50,015 nucleotides of DNA from Gammaproteobacteria bacterium (GCA_015488495.1 WFNS01000294.1:1-50015), one strand, 5' to 3'; numbered from the stretch's first letter, positions 2,725 to 46,397 are shown. The notes: a model not told the origin generated them from the letters alone. A program made the numbers and translations.

Positions 2725-3023
2725 ACCGGGAACGTCTGCTGAAAGTATTGCTGGCTCCCATCATCTCCGAGAAAGCCAGCATGGCAACCGAAAAGAGCAA
2801 TCAGGTGGTATTCAAGGTCGTGCCCGATGCCACCAAACCGGAGGTCAAGGCGGCGGTCGAGCAGCTGTTCGAGGTCGAGGTCCAATCGGTCAACATCTGC
2901 AACATCAAAGGCAAGAGCAAGCGTTTTGGCATGCGTATGGGGCGGCGTAACGGAGTCAAGAAGGCGTACGTGACCCTGAAACCCGGCCAGGACATCGGGC
3001 TCATGACCGAAGAGCTGAGCTAA
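2721..3023 (+). CDS. rplW: 50S ribosomal protein L23
   Basis: 100 aa, [14 protein letters not shown]... L23 family; ATGA overlap with rplD. Confidence 0.95.
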
Positions 3024-3036
3024 CAGGAATCGGATT

Positions 3037-3864
3037 ATGGCAGTAGTCAAGGCAAAACCGACATCGGCAGGTCGCCGCTTCGTGGTCAAGGTGGTGACTC
3101 CGGAGCTTCACAAGGGGAAACCTTATGCCCCTCTGCTGGAGAAGAAGAGCAAGACCGGAGGGCGCAACAACCTGGGTCGCATCACCTGCCGCCACCAGGG
3201 CGGGGGGCACAAGCAGAAATACCGGATCATCGACTTCAAGCGTAACAAGGACGGGATTCCGGGAAAGGTGGAACGTATCGAATACGATCCCAATCGCAGC
3301 GCCCATATCGCCCTGATCCGCTATGCCGACGGGGAGCGTCGCTATATCATTGCGCCCAAGGATCTGAAGGCCGGCAGCGAGATCATTTCCGGACAGGGTG
3401 CTCCCATCAAGCCGGGCAACACCCTGCAGTTGCAGGACATTCCCGTGGGAACCACGGTGCACTGCGTGGAAATGCGTCCTGGCAAGGGAGCCCAGCTGGC
3501 GCGCGCTGCCGGGGCCGCCGTTCAGTTGGTGGCCCGCGAAGGCCGCCACGCCACGCTGCGCCTGCGTTCGGGCGAGATGCGCAAGGTGCCCGCGGAGTGC
3601 CGTGCCACTATCGGTGAGGTGAGCAACTCGGAGCATGGTCTGCGCAAGCTGGGCAAGGCCGGCGCCAAGCGTTGGCGCGGGGTTCGTCCGACGGTTCGTG
3701 GTGTGGCCATGAATCCCGTGGATCACCCTCACGGTGGTGGCGAAGGCCGTACTTCCGGGGGGCGGCATCCGGTATCGCCATGGGGCACCCCCACCAAGGG
3801 ATATCGGACCCGCAGCAACAAGCGTACTGATTCGATGATTGTTCGTCGCCGTCACGGCAAATAG
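3037..3864 (+). CDS. rplB: 50S ribosomal protein L2
   Basis: 275 aa with the conserved ...[17 protein letters not shown]... motif. Confidence 0.97.
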
Positions 3865-15067: not shown

Positions 15068-15091
15068 ACGCCGGGGGTGACCCGGCGTTTT
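15068..15091 (+). terminator. Intrinsic terminator hairpin after rplQ, with its T-tract cut short by element E1
   Basis: ACGCCGGG (15068-15075) pairs with CCCGGCGT (15081-15088), loop GGTGA. Only TTTT follows before the palindromic element begins at 15091. Confidence 0.6.
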
Positions 15092-15433
15092 AGCACTCTT
15101 TCAAGGTAATAAATCAAGATTCAGTTGGCCTGTCAGCGTTCAGGGCAAGGCGCCCCTCGCAGCGAATGGCCGTCGCCCTTTGCATGAGGAGCGCCAACAC
15201 CCCGGGAGGGGATTGGGAGCGCGAAGCGCCCCCGAAGGGGTGGTGGAATACAGGGATGTATTCCATCAACGCCGCCATGGACGCTGACAGACCAACCCTT
15301 CGGGCGTCCCTGTGGTGTTCCGCCGCGGCGTTGCAGTGCTTGACAAGGGAACAACCATTGCCTGCGCACTGCGCCTTGCCGCGAAACACCACAGGGACGC
15401 TGAATCCTGATTTATTACCTTGAAAGAGTGCTA
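15091..15433 (-). mobile_element. Structured palindromic element copy E1 (343 bp; MITE-like or candidate structured RNA; inferred sense strand is minus)
   Basis: 34-bp terminal inverted repeat (15091-15124 vs 15400-15433) with one mismatch. Nested perfect or near-perfect hairpins at 15125-15295 and 15305-15399. Conserved core at 15328-15380 is shared with E3 and, in reverse orientation, with E2. Confidence 0.7.
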
Positions 15434-15443
15434 GTTTCCGGCC

Positions 15444-16112
15444 TCAGGAGAACCAGCGCGTGATCTCTTCTATCGGTTGACGGGTTTTCGGACGCCCTTC
15501 GCGAACCCGATAACCGAACGCAACCATGCAGGAGATACCGAATTTGTCGGTTTCCACCGAGAGGTGGTTCCTCAGCACGGCCTCTATCTTCTCCCGATCG
15601 AAGCCCTCGATGGGGCAGGAATCTACACCAAGCATTGCAGCGGTAGTCATCATGTTCCCCAGCGCGATGTAGGTCTGTTTGCAGGCCCAATCGAACATGG
15701 CCCGCTCGCTTTCCAGCAGCTTGAAATCGTTTTGCTGGAAGTTGCGATAGACCTCCCGCTTTTTCTCCATCACAGCTGCCGGCAGGCCCATTACATCGCG
15801 CATCATGTGGGTGATGTAGTCGCTGTCGTATCTCATGTAATGACTTTTTCGGGCCAGGATCACGATCAGATGACTGGCGGTCGGGATCTGTTTCTGCCCC
15901 CCCCAGGTGACCTCACGCAGTTTTTCCCGCAAAGTCGGCTGCTGGACGATGAGGTAGAGCCAGGGCTCAAAACCGAAGGAGCTGGGAGAGAGTCTGCCGG
16001 TCTGCAGAATCGTGTCGAAGATTTCTTCCGGGATTTTCTTTTCGGCATCGAACTCCTTGCAGGCATGACGGAAGTGATAGCTGTCGATGATTTCACTTGG
16101 TGAAATGGCCAT
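15444..16112 (-). CDS. Nitroreductase-family NAD(P)H oxidoreductase
   Basis: 222 aa, ...RHACKEFDAEKKIPEEIFDTILQTGRLSPSSFGFEPW... typical nitroreductase fold family. AAGAGGAGG RBS upstream. Confidence 0.85.
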   Translation of the reverse strand: MAISPSEIIDSYHFRHACKEFDAEKKIPEEIFDTILQTGRLSPSSFGFEPWLYLIVQQPTLREKLREVTWGGQKQIPTASHLIVILARKSHYMRYDSDYITHMMRDVMGLPAAVMEKKREVYRNFQQNDFKLLESERAMFDWACKQTYIALGNMMTTAAMLGVDSCPIEGFDREKIEAVLRNHLSVETDKFGISCMVAFGYRVREGRPKTRQPIEEITRWFS

Positions 16113-24078: not shown

Positions 24079-25863
24079 TTATCTCCTGGCCCAGCTCCAG
24101 GAAGACCACCAGCTCCAAATGGACCACCACCTGGGACCTTCGGCACGTCGGCAGGTGACGTTGGTCGTGGCAGTGCCGAATATCGAATTCAGCCGAACCG
24201 GATTTTCGATGCCCCCGACGCAGCTGGCGACAATCTTCCGGTCGCTCCAGGATTCAATGGAGCACCTTTCTCCGTTGCTCGACAAGAGGGTTCCCGAGTC
24301 TTCTGCATCGAGATAGCTGCCAAATCCTGATCCCCAGAGAGTGAGGTGCTCCCCTTCGCATCGAATATCGTCGATGGCAACCTCCGGTTTAATCAAAAAA
24401 TGGATGCTGGTGCTGTTCAGCTCCTTGCCGGATGGATCCCCTTTCGTTATCGTCAGATTGTAGTTTCCGGCGCTCAGATTGGCCGGAATCGTGACCTCCA
24501 TGTGAGTAGATGAAACACTATCCGGATGGATGTCGATCGTGGTACCGTCGTTTCGGGTCAAGCGTAGCCAAGTGCGCTCCTGATTTCCGCTTGTATGGGA
24601 TGACGATAAGGTGTTTACAAAGCCTGAACCTATGATCTGTAGGGTACTTGCAAGACCTGCGGTGACGACCGTTCTGCTGATCTCGCTGATCTCCGGAATA
24701 AGGGTGATATTGTCGAACCGACTGTCTATACTGGCAGAGACCATCTCATCTCGTGAGTTTTTGTGGCAGCCGTCACAGTTCTTCCGGTTGCCGATATGAC
24801 CAAAGAATGGCAGCTCCTCTCCGGCCACTACTCCATCCCCGATTGCATCGTATTCGATGCTGTGCAGTGAAGTTATGCCGTGGCATCGTTCACATCCGCG
24901 GATGGTGAAATCCGGAGGGGCAGAGGGTTGATGGCAGAGGGTGCAACCATGTACCGATCCGCTCCCAGGTTGTCCCACGCCTGTGCCGTGGTGGTTGGCG
25001 TAGTTGATGTTGATGCGTTGTCCGGTAACGTCGTCGATACCGGCAAAATGGCAATAGGTGCAATTGCCCATCGGCCGCCCTGTCTCACCAATGGGCGGGT
25101 TGAAATTTTCCATGATGTATTCGATTTGGGCTTCGGCCTCTTCTTTTCTCCTGAGATCCTCCTCGGTCGGGTTTGGGGGTAGTTCGAGTTTGTAGGCGAA
25201 GGCCGCTTTCAGTGCGCCGCGTAGCTGAACGCGGCTGTCGTAGAATCCGATACCTGGCCATGGCGTGGTTAAGGAAATGTCGTAGTGATTTTCCGGGTCA
25301 TCCGGGTGATTAGCCGGGTCCGGGATGCGGTGGTCCCCATTGGGGTCGTCGATCAGGCTGCCATGACATATATGGCAGTTGGCTTGCTGTGCCCGCTCGG
25401 TCAGGTGATGCACCGTGGCGATTAGTTCGCCCTGCCGGTTTTTTTTCTGGGTATGGCAATTGAGGCAGTCCCGAAAGACAGGGTCACTCGGATCCTGAGC
25501 AAAGCGGAAGAATCCGCCGGAAGGTCTCGACGGGTCTTCCACCCAGTCAATGGCGTGACAAGTTACGCACTTGTGTTCCCCATCGGGTGACTTCTCAGGA
25601 AAGGGTGATGCAGAATATGCCCCAATCGGAGTGTCAATTCTGAGATGATGTCGATCTGGGAGGTAGCCCGATTTCAAAGGGGCCGAGGTGCTCTCCGGTG
25701 CGCCGTGACAGCCGAGGCAGGTGACGAAGGTCATCTCCGCGAACCGTGTATCGGGAATACCAAGATATTGGTTCACGGGAGGTGGTGGAACGCTGGCCCA
25801 AACGGCGCCAGCAGCTAGAGCAGCCATCACCAGTAATATATTGCGCAGTGCGTCCCCTGCCAT
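24079..25863 (-). CDS. Secreted octaheme c-type cytochrome with two IPT/TIG-like repeats and a Trp-rich C-terminal tail (paralog 1)
   Basis: 594 aa. Signal peptide ...AAGAVWA|SVPPPP. Eight CxxCH motifs (CLGCH, CVTCH, CLNCH, CHICH, CTYCH, CTLCH, CERCH, CDGCH). C-terminal repeats carry GSGF motifs. Ends GPRWWSIWSWWSSWSWARR*. Confidence 0.9.
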   Translation of the reverse strand: MAGDALRNILLVMAALAAGAVWASVPPPPVNQYLGIPDTRFAEMTFVTCLGCHGAPESTSAPLKSGYLPDRHHLRIDTPIGAYSASPFPEKSPDGEHKCVTCHAIDWVEDPSRPSGGFFRFAQDPSDPVFRDCLNCHTQKKNRQGELIATVHHLTERAQQANCHICHGSLIDDPNGDHRIPDPANHPDDPENHYDISLTTPWPGIGFYDSRVQLRGALKAAFAYKLELPPNPTEEDLRRKEEAEAQIEYIMENFNPPIGETGRPMGNCTYCHFAGIDDVTGQRININYANHHGTGVGQPGSGSVHGCTLCHQPSAPPDFTIRGCERCHGITSLHSIEYDAIGDGVVAGEELPFFGHIGNRKNCDGCHKNSRDEMVSASIDSRFDNITLIPEISEISRTVVTAGLASTLQIIGSGFVNTLSSSHTSGNQERTWLRLTRNDGTTIDIHPDSVSSTHMEVTIPANLSAGNYNLTITKGDPSGKELNSTSIHFLIKPEVAIDDIRCEGEHLTLWGSGFGSYLDAEDSGTLLSSNGERCSIESWSDRKIVASCVGGIENPVRLNSIFGTATTNVTCRRAEGPRWWSIWSWWSSWSWARR

Positions 25864-25933
25864 GGTGAAACATCCCTCCTGTCCAAGAGTTGCCAGAACG
25901 CTTGGTTGCCGTTACTCGTTTCTTGATAGTTTT

Positions 25934-25962
25934 GTATTGCCGAACTGTGGGGGATTAGTCAA
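25934..25962 (-). promoter_or_regulatory. Candidate sigma70 promoter for cytochrome paralog 1
   Basis: On the minus strand: TTGACT (25962-25957), 17-nt spacer, CAATAC (25939-25934), about 70 nt upstream of the ATG. Weak -10; read by eye only. Confidence 0.25.
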
Positions 25963-26238
25963 TTTTTTCGTTTCTTATCTGAACCCGGTTGTTAGGTGGT
26001 AATCGGGGGCAGATTCGATGCGGCTAGAGCCGTGTCGACGATGGAGCGAGCAACCCCAATCACGTATTCAAATTGCTAATAGGCACCAAGGTGAGCGTCT
26101 TGTGATGCCTCTCACCGGGTTAATGTACCTCCCAAGAAGAAGGCTCAAATTTATTATATCAGGCTGTGCTTACCCACCTTGCTATCCATTATAGCATCCA
26201 AATCCGATCCTGTGATTGTTGAGCAATTTTATTACAAG

Positions 26239-26275
26239 AAAAAAGAGAGGGGAGCCTTATAGCAAGACTCCCCTC
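26239..26275 (-). terminator. Rho-independent terminator downstream of cytochrome paralog 2
   Basis: On the minus strand, GAGGGGAG...CTCCCCTC stem (26247-26275) followed by TCTTTTTT. A second hairpin CCGGCAA/TTGCCGG lies at 26289-26312. Confidence 0.7.
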
Positions 26276-26331
26276 GTCGGCACTTTTCCGGCAAAAGATG
26301 CTGCTTGCCGGTCAGACCCGTATGGTACTAA

Positions 26332-28185
26332 CTAACGGCGTGCCCAGCTCCAGGAGGACCACCAGCTCCAGATGGACCACCATTTCGGCCGACCCGCACT
26401 GTCGGTACCCCCACAGGCGGCACTGGATGAGGCCTCTCCGAAGAGTCCATCGACGGTGACACTGCCGGTGCCGGAGCCACAGTTGGCGACGATCTGGGTG
26501 TCGGACCAGGACTCGACTGAGCAGCTGCCCTCATCGGAGGCCACGCCGAGACCACCACCACCCACAAAGGTGTCACCGAATCCGCTGCCGGTGATGGTGA
26601 CCTTGCCACCACTGCAGCTCACATCTTCAATGTTGACTCCAGGAGCCACCAGGAAGCTCATAGCAGGACTGCGTTTCGCAAACTCGCCACGCCCCCTGAC
26701 CACGTAGAGCTCATAGTTATCGGCGGGCAGGTCTGCCGGGATCACCGCCTTGGCGCTGGTGTAGTCGTATTCCGTCATCGGAATCTCATGCACCTGGCCA
26801 TCGGTCCCTACCAGCTCAAGCCGTGTGCTGGGGCCGTTGAAGCTAGAGCCAGTGATGGTGATCTCCTGTGCCTTACCTGCAACGCTACCCAAAGCGCTGA
26901 TGTCGGAGACACTGGGCGGAACGCCGCCAAGTTCGACACTGCCGTTCAGATAGCTGGCGCTGGCCTGGTAGACCTGTCCGGTTCTGTAGTTGAGGTGACA
27001 GCCCCGACAGTTGAGATCGTTGCCGATGTGGCCCATGAATGGCTTCTCTTCAAAGGGAACGATGCCGTCACCCTCTGCGTCATACTCGATGGCGTGCACG
27101 GTACTGATGGCGTGACACACTTCGCAGCCCCGAATGGTGAAGTTCGGCGGATTCTCGGGCGCGTGGCAGAGATCACACCCATGCACCGAGCCACTGCCCG
27201 GCTGGCCGACACCAGTGGAGTGGTGGTTGGACATGTTGGTGCCAATGTCGTTCTTGGCAAGTCCGGTCCCGGGCTGCACTGCGTCCCCCGGGTTCTCCCC
27301 GGCATAGTGACAGTGCTCGCAGTTACCGGTGCGGCGTCCACCTTGCTCCCCATCGGGTACCAGGATGGCCTGGATATTGCCCGCGGCATCTGTCTCATAC
27401 CGATAGCGCGGCGGGTCGATGACGAACTGCCCTCCCAGCTCATTGGGATCATAGTAGCGCTTGGCAAAATCGGGGCAGTCGGCATAGATTGCCTGCAGCA
27501 TGGAGACCCAGTTGCCTTCGTCGTAGTTGTCTCCAGGCCATGGAGTGATGAGGGAGATATCGTAGAAGTTCCGATCCCCATCCGGCATCACCTCGCCACA
27601 GTGGCGGGCCTTATCAGGATCTGGCGCAGTACCCTGATCGGGAACACGATGGTCATCAGTAGCATTGTTGACCAGGCTACCGTGACATTGATAGCACAGT
27701 TTCTTCTGCGCCTTATCAGTCAGATGGTGCACTGTGGCCGTAAGGTTACCATCGGCATCCTTCTTCTGCTTGTGGCAGTTCAGGCAGTCACGGAACTGAG
27801 GATCCGTCGGCTCCAGCGCGAACTTGAAGTATTGCCCGCCGGGACGATTGGGGTCCTCAAATACGTCGATCGCATGACAGGTGGCACATTTGTGGGTGCC
27901 ATCAGGAGATTTATCCGGGAAGGGAGAGGCGGAGTAGTCCGGATCGATCGGCGTATCGACGCGCAAATGATGCCGGTCAGGCAGATAGCCTATCTTTACT
28001 GGCGCCGGTGCATTCTTGGGATCACCGTGGCAACCCAGACAGGTTTGATATGTCATATCCGCAAAACGCCCATCCGGTATACCCAGATTCTGGTTTACCG
28101 GCGGGGGTGGTAATTTCGCCCAAGCCCCGCCGGCCATCACAATGGCCGCCGTGACCAGGGCTCCTTTCAACAGTTTCCTGAACAT
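26332..28185 (-). CDS. Secreted octaheme c-type cytochrome with two IPT/TIG-like repeats and a Trp-rich C-terminal tail (paralog 2)
   Basis: 617 aa from MFRKLLKGALVTAAIVMAGGAWA|KLPPPP (ATG at 28185; the longer ORF-track start is not supported). Eight CxxCH motifs (CLGCH, CATCH, CLNCH, CYQCH, CEHCH, CDLCH, CEVCH, CRGCH). Ends RPKWWSIWSWWSSWSWARR*. Confidence 0.9.
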   Translation of the reverse strand: MFRKLLKGALVTAAIVMAGGAWAKLPPPPVNQNLGIPDGRFADMTYQTCLGCHGDPKNAPAPVKIGYLPDRHHLRVDTPIDPDYSASPFPDKSPDGTHKCATCHAIDVFEDPNRPGGQYFKFALEPTDPQFRDCLNCHKQKKDADGNLTATVHHLTDKAQKKLCYQCHGSLVNNATDDHRVPDQGTAPDPDKARHCGEVMPDGDRNFYDISLITPWPGDNYDEGNWVSMLQAIYADCPDFAKRYYDPNELGGQFVIDPPRYRYETDAAGNIQAILVPDGEQGGRRTGNCEHCHYAGENPGDAVQPGTGLAKNDIGTNMSNHHSTGVGQPGSGSVHGCDLCHAPENPPNFTIRGCEVCHAISTVHAIEYDAEGDGIVPFEEKPFMGHIGNDLNCRGCHLNYRTGQVYQASASYLNGSVELGGVPPSVSDISALGSVAGKAQEITITGSSFNGPSTRLELVGTDGQVHEIPMTEYDYTSAKAVIPADLPADNYELYVVRGRGEFAKRSPAMSFLVAPGVNIEDVSCSGGKVTITGSGFGDTFVGGGGLGVASDEGSCSVESWSDTQIVANCGSGTGSVTVDGLFGEASSSAACGGTDSAGRPKWWSIWSWWSSWSWARR

Positions 28186-28514
28186 AGTAATACCCCTTGT
28201 TGTTGGTAAGTTGCTTCTCTTCACTTGCTGTTGTGCGCCGCGTACAGGCGACAGCGCGCATACCACTCTTGATGGTGGCTTCATCAATACCAATCCCTCA
28301 AGGCTCAACGAGCTCTCGTTATGGTTGCTCATTGCCCAGTCTCTAATCTCGCTTCGTAACAAGTAAGATAGACCATTTTTTTTCGGGTAGGAAGTTTTTT
28401 CAAATAATTTTTTTATTTCCCCAAACTCGGTGCGACCGACTCTGCGAGGGGAGGATTCAGTGCGCCAAATAATAGTCAAAAATATATCAATATGACTAAT
28501 TTTCGTTATGCTTG

Positions 28515-45068: not shown

Positions 45069-45828
45069 GTGGCGTCGCCCCGTTATCCGGAAAAGGTGGT
45101 CTCTGGCGGACAGACCGGCGCGGACAGGGCGGCGCTGGACGTGGCGCTGATGCTTGGTATCCCCCGTGGTGGCTGGTGCCCCAAGGGCCGGCTCGCCGAA
45201 GATGGTGTCATTCCACCGTACTATCCGCTGCGGGAGAGTGACTCCCGTGACTATGCGTATCGCACCCGTCTCAACGTGCGCGACAGTGATGGTACGTTGA
45301 TCCTCCATCGTGGCGTTCTGAACGGCGGAACCGCTCTCACTCTCCGCTGCGCACGGGATCTGGGCAGACCGGTGTTCGTCGTTGATCTGGAACACCCACC
45401 GGAGCTGAATACGGTGCACGCGTGGTTGCGCCGCCATCACATCTGGGTGTTCATTGCCCCGACAACCAAATATTTACACCTTCAGCCATCCTGTGTCCGT
45501 CTCTGGCAAGGCATCGAAACGCCGCTGTAGCCGGGTACTACAGCAAGTTTCGATAACGCCGTCCAGAGACGGACACAGGATGGCCGGCCATCGATTCTCA
45601 AACAGTTGGGACGCCGGGTCTGCGCCAGTTCTGCGTTGCAGCACTTGGAAATAGTCATCACTATTCCCTGCGCGCTGCGCCTTGACCTGACGCAGACCCG
45701 GCGTCCTGAAGGTGCAAATATTTGGTTGTCGGGGCAATAATGTCGCGGGGCCGCGGGAGAGCGGCTCCCCGGGGATTCATCGGGAAGCCGTGCGTTTTCT
45801 GGAGCAGCTACTGGGTCAGCCGAAATAG
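45069..45828 (+). pseudogene. YpsA/SLOG-like (putative molybdenum-carrier, PF12694-like) gene interrupted by element E3
   Basis: The 5' part at 45069-45452 encodes ...VVSGGQTGADRAALDVALMLGIPRGGWCPKGRLAEDG...HHIWVF. The 3' part at 45739-45828 encodes NVAGPRESGSPGIHREAVRFLEQLLGQPK* in a +1-shifted frame. Deleting 45453-45738 (286 nt) joins them in frame. As it stands, the frame runs into the element and stops at 45530. Confidence 0.75.
45453..45738 (-). mobile_element. Structured palindromic element copy E3 (286 bp; same orientation as E1; inserted in a coding sequence)
   Basis: 33-bp terminal inverted repeat (45453-45485 vs 45706-45738) with one mismatch. Hairpins at 45486-45583 (21-bp perfect stem) and 45610-45705 (15-bp perfect stem). 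Conserved core at 45633-45685 matches E1 15328-15380. Confidence 0.75.
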
Positions 45829-46397
45829 TCGGGCTCGTTACCGGGCTTCCACTTGATATTGCAGCCCAAGCTGGGTTTCTGCTCTTCGGGCACCGGCTTG
45901 CCGGCCAGCACCGCCTCCACCGCGGCGCGCAGATCCTTGCCGGTGACCGGTTCGTCGTTGCGCGGGCGGGCGTCGTCGAACTGGCCGCGATAGACCAGCT
46001 TGCGGTCGGCGTCGTAGAGAAAGAAGTCGGGGGTGCAGGCGGCGCGGTAGGCCTTGGCCACCGACTGGTCGGCATCGTAGAGATAGGGGAAGGTGTAACC
46101 CGCTTTCTTCACCTCTTCCACCATCTTCTCCGGACTGTCGTCCGGATAGTTGTCGGCGTCGTTGGCGTTGATACCCACCATGGCCAGCCCTTTCGGTTGA
46201 TACTCGCGGGCGAATTCGGCCAGCGCCTCCCGGATGTGGATCACATAGGGACAGTGGTTGCACATGAAGACCACCAGCAGGGCCGGTGCCTCCTTGAACT
46301 CTTCCAGAGAGCGGTATTTGCCGGTGGCCGGCTCCAGCAGCCGGAAATCGGGTGCCGGCGTACCCAGTTCCTGCATGGTGGATGGGGTTCTTACCAT
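45816..46397 (-). CDS. Thioredoxin-fold thiol-disulfide oxidoreductase (AhpC/TSA-redoxin family)
   Basis: 193 aa, ...LLVVFMCNHCPYVIH... CxxC-type motif. Follows the carboxylase genes on the same strand. The 3' end overlaps the 3' end of the SLOG-like gene by 13 nt (convergent). Confidence 0.8.
   Translation of the reverse strand: MVRTPSTMQELGTPAPDFRLLEPATGKYRSLEEFKEAPALLVVFMCNHCPYVIHIREALAEFAREYQPKGLAMVGINANDADNYPDDSPEKMVEEVKKAGYTFPYLYDADQSVAKAYRAACTPDFFLYDADRKLVYRGQFDDARPRNDEPVTGKDLRAAVEAVLAGKPVPEEQKPSLGCNIKWKPGNEPDYFG

Follow-up and report, generated by a model that had tools for sequence, protein, structure and literature searches.

A 286-nucleotide (nt) palindromic element, here called E3, interrupts a cpYpsA/SLOG gene in a 50,015-nt stretch of DNA from a Gammaproteobacteria bacterium (GCA_015488495.1 WFNS01000294.1:1-50015), to which we refer as the window. 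E3 is very probably one copy of a non-autonomous family of DNA palindromes that is mobilised in trans; it entered cpYpsA a single time, and its present diversity would reflect later recombination and the dynamics of palindromic DNA. Taken alone, the insertion is nothing out of the ordinary, a small mobile repeat having disrupted a gene; the family behind it is unusual. Its alleles are useful for the study of palindrome evolution in vivo, since empty, occupied, flipped, inverted and partly deleted forms occur together in one wild population.

The interrupted cpYpsA gene and its alleles

On the plus strand, the open reading frame (ORF) that begins at 45069 reads ...LRRHHIWVF, passes into the element-encoded IAPTTKYLHLQ... 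and stops at 45530, and the C-terminal block lies directly 3' of E3, where 45739-45828 translates as NVAGPRESGSPGIHREAVRFLEQLLGQPK*. The initial annotation of the window had reported these positions, all of which are correct, and had named the PF12694/YpsA-type family, an assignment borne out by the Pfam match. The 157-amino-acid protein repaired in silico covers the PF12694 cpYpsA profile from end to end (1-145 of 145, 195.9 bits, with a cut-off of 26.2), and the interrupted ORF covers positions 1-119 only (159 bits). In an alignment of cpYpsA orthologs, the segment ...V/T-L-N-V-A-G-P-R-E-S runs without a gap across the junction. Since the insertion severs this conserved C-terminal block, it has probably knocked out cpYpsA function.

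The features of the interrupted gene and of the element within it are as follows.

45069..45452, plus strand: cpYpsA/SLOG gene, 5' fragment (128 codons; the ORF continues into E3 and stops at 45530)
45450..45452, plus strand: hypervariable junction triplet (TTC in the window and in L001-L003, TCT in L004 and L010, CTC in the empty alleles)
45453..45738, unstranded: E3, the whole inserted palindromic unit, 286 nt (delimited by the inverted repeat, by folding and by the empty alleles L006, L007 and L009)
45453..45485, unstranded: left terminal-stem arm (ATTGCCCCGACAACCAAATATTTACACCTTCAG), ending in the family junction TTCAG; the stem is also present in L268
45484..45585, minus strand: hairpin module H1 (module model match, cmsearch 47.0 bits, E = 6e-9)
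45586..45607, unstranded: inter-module linker; canonical members have the CCCGAAGGG mini-hairpin at this place
45608..45707, plus strand: hairpin module H2 (cmsearch 93.3 bits, E = 5e-20, and the alignment of family modules)
45706..45738, unstranded: right terminal-stem arm, including the GTG that opens the ORF MQIFGCRGN, directed outward into the cpYpsA 3' fragment
45739..45828, plus strand: cpYpsA gene, 3' fragment (NVAGPRES...QPK*), sharing 13 nt with the convergent Redoxin gene at the 3' end of the latter

The Redoxin gene (45816-46397, minus strand) is the thioredoxin-fold neighbour which had been placed 77 nt from E3, and this is indeed the distance from the end of E3 to its stop codon. 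In terms of geometry, the suggested place of E3 in the 3' UTR of that operon is thus correct. A sequence search at E3 gave no terminator- or promoter-like signal. One occupied haplotype, that of L004, carries a 12-nt in-frame deletion in the cpYpsA 5' fragment (-324 to -313 from the junction), which fits relaxed constraint on a gene that was already broken.

We assembled the alleles of this site from ten hydrothermal-vent contigs, belonging to metagenomes or metagenome-assembled genomes (MAGs), that encode an identical neighbouring Redoxin protein. Three of the ten (L006, L007 and L009) have an empty site, ...CACATCCGGGTGCTC|AATGTCGCG, within an intact cpYpsA gene of 157 amino acids; the remaining contigs are occupied by E3. 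The uninterrupted site, for which a search of related genomes had been suggested, is thus found within the same population, and it is joined exactly at the point that the initial annotation had predicted when it assigned both stem arms to the insertion. The join point of the repair proposed there holds and the codon in front of it does not: natural empty alleles have CTC, encoding a Leu that is nearly invariant in the family, instead of TTC, and occupied alleles have TTC or TCT. One copy of the E3 subfamily inserted here once; it separated the Leu codon from the Asn codon in ...VL|NVAGPRES and duplicated 2 bp at most.

Runs of N begin exactly at the E3 borders in scaffolds L003 and L005, and flank sequence is duplicated in L003. 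An apparent extra insertion in L003 and a gap in L005 were rejected as real variants, as they coincide with scaffolding N runs at the element borders. These runs suggest that empty and occupied alleles coexist in single samples and break the assemblies.

The right flank of E3 is invariant among alleles and the left triplet varies. All of the positions from -3 to -1 are polymorphic, with C/T transitions only, in a neighbourhood that varies by about 1.5-2%, and the T at -1 in L004 and L010 adds one pair to the palindrome. Template switching where the stem begins, or repair during insertion, could give rise to such a hypervariable triplet.

At least three flanking haplotypes, 1.5-1.9% apart, carry occupied alleles, yet the elements of the window and of L004 differ at just 1 of 286 positions. 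Together with the opposite orientation of the element in L010 and the two junction triplets TTC and TCT, this could be read as a specific homing target that was hit independently several times, or as precise excision and re-insertion. We consider both very unlikely, because T at -3 and G at +77 are present in every occupied allele and C and A in every empty allele, because a second E3-type site (see below) has just AAT in common with cpYpsA at the junction, and because inversion between perfect 23-bp outer stem arms explains L010. On the strength of the linked markers, repeated independent insertion at the cpYpsA site was rejected. The distal flanks are mosaic, and between -193 and -9 the haplotype of L010 turns from empty-type into occupied-type, a nearby switch of the kind that recombination gives. 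Linked markers at -3 and +77 within mosaic distal flanks indicate that a single insertion took place and that homologous recombination in the flanks then carried the occupied allele onto other haplotypes.

The interior of E3 falls into two haplotypes that do not track the flanks, one of which shares variants with a paralog in L268. The hairpin-1 interior of L001 is the exact reverse complement of that of L002, and in L010 the whole element is inverted at the same cpYpsA site and lacks hairpin 1, which is deleted between two GCCATC direct repeats. Paired changes in both stem arms are seen among the alleles and L268. DNA palindromes ordinarily undergo both arm-to-arm inversion and slippage over a hairpin. 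After the insertion of E3, its two arms would have changed in concert, the interior of hairpin 1 would have flipped, the entire unit would have inverted and slippage would have removed hairpin 1.

When the spurious ORF that opens within the stem of E3 served as query, a protein database search returned one relative, in a related MAG. The underlying copy, L268, is 285 nt long, shows 96% identity to E3 and shares its stem, with an A-to-G change mirrored in both arms. The stem that had been described as specific to the cpYpsA copy is therefore shared, and the presence of a 96%-identical copy at an unrelated locus shows that the E3 subfamily transposes. L268 lies just past the start of a DUF480 gene (...GTG GAG AAT|AAT TTA ACC...). 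All three database variants of this DUF480 protein are called from an ATG within the stem and have the N-terminus MQIFGCRGN, while orthologs begin MDITLTFNETR; at this locus, MQIFGCRGN is either a false N-terminus or a genuine replacement start. The outward peptide MQIFGCRGN is in frame with the downstream host codons at both known E3-subfamily sites (window 45712-45828; L268 3273-3938). Gene callers can convert the stem into false N-termini of the MQIFGCRGN... type.

Architecture, geometry and distribution of the family

The terminal arms of E3 (45453-45485 and 45706-45738) are 97% complementary and, apart from a single mismatch, make up a 33-nt inverted repeat. Within it, the stem of H1 is a perfect 22 bp (45485-45506 and 45563-45584), and H2 has stem arms at 45609-45631 and 45684-45706 and the conserved apical motif GCGTTGCAG-nn-CTTG...CTGCG-nn-CTGCGCCTTG. 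The folding energy of E3 is -184 kcal/mol on the plus strand and -203 kcal/mol on the minus strand, as compared with about -92 and -98 kcal/mol for shuffled sequences (z = -19 and -21).

A pattern built on the conserved hairpin core was found at no fewer than 119 loci of a genome collection, with about 75 real modules among the matches listed. Within the same listed matches, the hosts comprise Pseudomonas, Delftia, Acidovorax, Stenotrophomonas, Nitrosomonas, Sulfuritalea, Methylobacillus, Thiohalobacter, Thiohalomonas, Salinisphaera, Colwellia and many MAGs. Judged from these sequence matches, the family is widespread in Alpha-, Beta- and Gammaproteobacteria, including vent symbiont-like Gammaproteobacteria. 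Some genomes hold several copies, and near-identical ones occur, for example at least four in OZ242265.1; members are mostly intergenic. In the window, significant matches to the module covariance model fall inside E3 and two siblings, E1 and E2, and nowhere else. No family member was found in E. coli genomes, and the six pattern matches in viral contigs included no real module. BLAST against plasmids with E3, canonical and stem-only queries found a few unannotated intergenic copies on megaplasmids of Pseudomonas, Azotobacter, Halomonas and Comamonas. Rfam gave no match to any family for the window and 12 canonical loci at the gathering score, or for E3 at a permissive threshold, with just tRNA elsewhere and noise. 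Searches by sequence text and by description turned up no specific literature account; the P. fluorescens repeat catalogue contains two unnamed families, R200 of 320 bp and R26 of 352 bp, that might overlap with this one. The family is thus apparently uncatalogued in Rfam, in annotated plasmid and E. coli records and in the searchable literature.

The order of terminal stem, H1, small CCCGAAGGG hairpin, inverted H2 and terminal stem recurs in the family, and the three-way-junction fold is alike in 15 examples. Length is 262-274 nt (mode 269), and the terminal inverted repeats of 43 members are 23-38 bp. This 269-nt layout is shared by hosts as far apart as Pseudomonas, Delftia, Nitrosomonas and the vent symbiont-like Gammaproteobacteria. 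The left module lies on the minus strand and the right module on the plus strand in all of the approximately 45 two-module elements. This fixed arrangement confers dyad symmetry, the same motif order being read from either strand, and with a stem of about 30 bp around two inverted modules of about 100 nt either DNA strand can fold into the same Y-shaped three-way junction. One-module derivatives are also found (L017, L027, L041, L129 and L010). In L088, a related vent MAG, a one-module element adjoins a full two-module element at about 2830-3180, and a further module lies at 10-106, near the contig end, which indicates that copies of the family can cluster or nest.

The conserved part is the interior. 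Between genera the modules align at 72-75% identity and the terminal stems do not align; in 38 full-length members the identity over the terminal 30 nt is 27%, the random level. In 35 of these 38 members the invariant ...GCGCCTTG motif nevertheless lies 53-57 nt from the tip. E3 has atypical tips (ATTGCC...GGCAAT), yet keeps the standard distance, 54 nt. A metagenome scan with a 15-mer from the E3 stem, a query of insufficient length, gave chance hits among the matches listed, and three loci examined further (L144, L215 and L229) were rejected as unrelated. L144 has a small inverted-repeat element of its own at 570-745, with arms GGCCGACAACCAAATATCATCCCTCCAGGTTCAA about 140 nt apart and no module, and the 15-mer that it shares with the E3 stem is probably a coincidence.

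The outermost bases are mostly 5'-AG...CT-3' in the 43 members; immediately outside the tips, about 27 have T at the left end and about 32 have A at the right end, and about 18 have CTAG...CTAG ends. The initial annotation had held that no target-site duplication flanks E3. This stands in so far as there is no direct repeat longer than 2 bp, and has to be qualified in that a 2-bp TA-type repeat (TA/TA in L004, L010 and L268) could hide in the palindrome. E3 may be written GTGTT-CA-[284 nt]-TA-ATGTCG in the window, that is, as a 284-nt core (45454-45737) with a flanking 2-bp CA/TA repeat, and GTGTC-TA-[...]-TA-ATGTCG in L004 and L010, against GTGCT-CA-ATGTCG in the empty alleles. As TA and CTAG are self-complementary, an element without duplication and an element 2 nt shorter with a TA duplication predict the same empty site. 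Beta-type copies, which combine perfect stems with non-TA flanks such as C...T, shift the balance slightly towards no duplication.

Mobilisation of the element and competing explanations

The strong base-pair covariation of the family and the 20 kcal/mol by which the minus strand of E3 is the more stable might suggest that E3 acts as RNA, either as an intron-like insert in the cpYpsA mRNA or as a structured non-coding RNA antisense to cpYpsA. The module alignment has 95% of its cells paired and 393 double-sided changes against 98 expected, with the observed score reached in 0 of 500 shuffles; one-sided (wobble) changes are nearly absent from this count. Such a pattern fits strictly complementary DNA arms evolving in concert, not an RNA helix that passes through G-U intermediates. 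When 30 members were folded, the plus strand was better in 13 and the minus strand in 17, with 157 and 145 wobbles, respectively. The lack of a family-wide strand bias, the covariation pattern, the absence of an Rfam match and the same-site inversion in L010 led us to reject the intron-like option and the antisense orientation that had been assigned to the element; in addition, the motif layout is dyad-symmetric with equivalent strands, members are mostly intergenic, E3 and E1 are polymorphic for presence at the DNA level and E3 has no promoter-like site. We regard a function as RNA as hardly credible.

A structural DNA or RNA element that serves the host is also improbable. Here E3 would resemble REP/BIME-like sequences, which bind gyrase or IHF, terminate transcription or stabilise mRNA, and its copy in cpYpsA would be an accident due to rare duplication by recombination and not to dedicated transposition. 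The deep conservation of apical motif and geometry across classes, the mostly intergenic positions, the low local copy number (three in 50 kb) and the absence of a linked transposase would suit such a role. Exact insertion boundaries at unrelated sites, two of them inside genes, near-identical copies within genomes such as OZ242265.1 and the lack of a terminator-like signal argue for mobility instead, and a host role and mobility are not mutually exclusive.

For a mobile DNA palindrome, the enzyme could find its substrate in more than one way. First, E3 could be a classical MITE (miniature transposable element with inverted repeats), with terminal repeats bound by a DDE transposase of the IS630/Tc1-mariner type and a TA (preferably CTAG) target whose duplicate is hidden in the palindrome. 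IS630 uses a CTAG target with duplication of TA. The terminal inverted repeats of the family, the T and A outside most tips and the CTAG...CTAG ends would all agree with this mechanism, as would the size, which is typical of a MITE, the form of E1 (T-TA-[GCAC...GTGC]-TA-G) and that of L004, L010 and L268 (TA-[TTGCC...GGCAA]-TA). However, the empty site of E3 (GTGCTCAATG) lacks TA, perfect-stem copies of the beta type are flanked by, for example, C...T, and neither the plasmid collection nor the family loci yielded an insertion sequence (IS) whose ends match. Moreover, stems that are random between subfamilies around a conserved interior are the opposite of what is expected for terminal repeats bound by a transposase. 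We therefore consider a classical MITE somewhat unlikely.

Second, the enzyme could read the folded modules and cut at a measured distance, in analogy with REPIN/RAYT or HUH systems. The combination of a conserved interior, fixed geometry, random stem sequence and strand symmetry favours an enzyme that recognises the fold, and we put this forward tentatively, as a possibility that falls a little short of being likely. An enzyme encoded elsewhere in the genome would recognise the two conserved hairpin modules, cut about 55 nt away and ignore the terminal sequence, and insertion would occur at a T|A-type step without true duplication. The hairpin or single-stranded DNA mechanism that the initial annotation had considered for E3 is in this respect still live, and strengthened by the fixed geometry with variable stems; its intron-like alternative has fallen away. 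Finally, the family could be an uncatalogued, structure-defined class of mobile DNA, a 'giant REPIN' common to Alpha-, Beta- and Gammaproteobacteria with flip and flop isomers such as viral hairpin telomeres have, on whose folded single strands a single-copy host enzyme (HUH/RAYT-like or a recombinase) would act. The three-way junction of about 269 nt would then be recognised by its two modules and cut about 55 nt away irrespective of stem sequence. This we hold to be distinctly doubtful. If the mobilising enzyme does read structure, the REPIN/RAYT and IS200/IS605 paradigm would extend to much larger folded substrates, and if the enzyme is found, it would provide a testable system in culturable Pseudomonas.

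Several observations weigh against a trans-mobilised palindrome family with a single insertion at cpYpsA. A search for distant stem partners at the approximately 75 loci gave no gene-carrying version of the family, no gene recurs as neighbour of the copies (only housekeeping genes and wrong-frame ORFs were seen), and the window has housekeeping genes only, with no transposase. The partly conserved tips (AG...CT, often CTAG...CTAG) also fit a sequence-specific terminal repeat, and the junction data do not separate a duplication of 0 bp from one of 2 bp. Correction by template switching could by itself maintain strict Watson-Crick stems, with no selection for folding. The flip and inversion variants are known from short-read metagenome assemblies, and the loss of cpYpsA function is deduced from sequence.

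Relation to known systems and to other features of the window

The family resembles REPINs in being a non-coding, strand-symmetric doublet of inverted hairpin units, and REPIN/RAYT systems in the precedence of fold over terminal sequence, the absence of an obvious target duplication, long persistence across lineages and an enzyme which, if it exists, would be a single-copy gene encoded elsewhere. It differs in that its modules are about 100 nt long (about 98 nt in the alignment), as compared with 20-40 nt for a repetitive extragenic palindromic (REP) unit, that it has an additional terminal stem of about 30 bp and a three-way junction, and that its modules have neither a GTAG nor a CGTC head, their conserved part being apical (GTTGCAG..CTTG...CTGCGCCTTG). 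No RAYT (Y1 HUH) gene was found beside the approximately 75 copies, a result that covers their neighbourhoods only, and the copy number looks lower than that of REPINs.

MITEs with a TA target, such as those derived from IS630/Tc1-mariner elements and the Correia elements of Neisseria, likewise measure a few hundred bp, have terminal inverted repeats with T|A or CTAG ends, lie in or beside genes, are polymorphic for presence and can provide outward start codons. In the E3 family, by contrast, the interior is conserved and the stems are random between subfamilies at a fixed length, the E3 target lacks TA, and the search of loci and plasmids yielded no parent IS. The palindrome-associated transposable elements (PATEs) of IS200/IS605 would share recognition of hairpins, a single-strand mechanism, precise boundaries and the absence of target duplication with the E3 family, but have no terminal inverted repeats and carry both hairpins on the same strand, whereas the E3 modules are inverted inside a terminal stem. 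The attC sites of integrons are also folded single-strand sites with poor sequence conservation but preserved geometry; an attC site, however, measures 57-141 nt, consists of one hairpin, carries R''/R' core sites (RYYYAAC / GTTRRRY) and lies at the end of a cassette in an array, none of which is found in the E3 family. Lastly, as an architectural analogy only, the inverted terminal repeat (ITR) of parvoviruses such as adeno-associated virus (AAV) is a T- or Y-shaped DNA three-way junction with a long stem around two small palindromes; it occurs in 'flip' and 'flop' orientations and is cut by an HUH nuclease at a fixed distance from the binding site. The AAV ITR, however, measures about 125 nt and serves a linear viral genome as its telomere; it is not an interspersed chromosomal repeat, and no homology is implied.

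The two siblings of E3 in the window differ from it in their terminal stems and agree with it in the junction (TTCAG...CTGAA) and the hairpin motifs.

15091..15433, unstranded: E1, canonical gamma subfamily, with tips TAGCACTCTTTCAAGG... (about 75 extra nt in H1; not present in the related contig L132)
16154..16381, unstranded: E2, an older, degraded copy (in all population contigs)

The empty E1 site in L132 reads GGCGTT-CTGG-TTTCC, and the occupied site GGCGTT-TTAG[CAC...GTG]CTAG-TTTCC. The extra segment of E1 (15185-15265) itself forms small hairpins and extends the span of H1 to 186 nt, as compared with about 108 nt in L088 and L089, which are close relatives; between population contigs it varies by compensatory changes and small indels. 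E1 and E2 bracket one gene of the nitroreductase family (15444-16112, minus strand) in a cassette-like manner. Since L132 lacks E1 and retains the gene and E2, the pair does not constitute one mobile unit. Elsewhere in the window and unrelated to E3, 24079-28479 contains two large minus-strand ORFs with multihaem cytochrome signatures (MtrC/MtrF-like and cytochrome c7), beside a VWA-domain protein.

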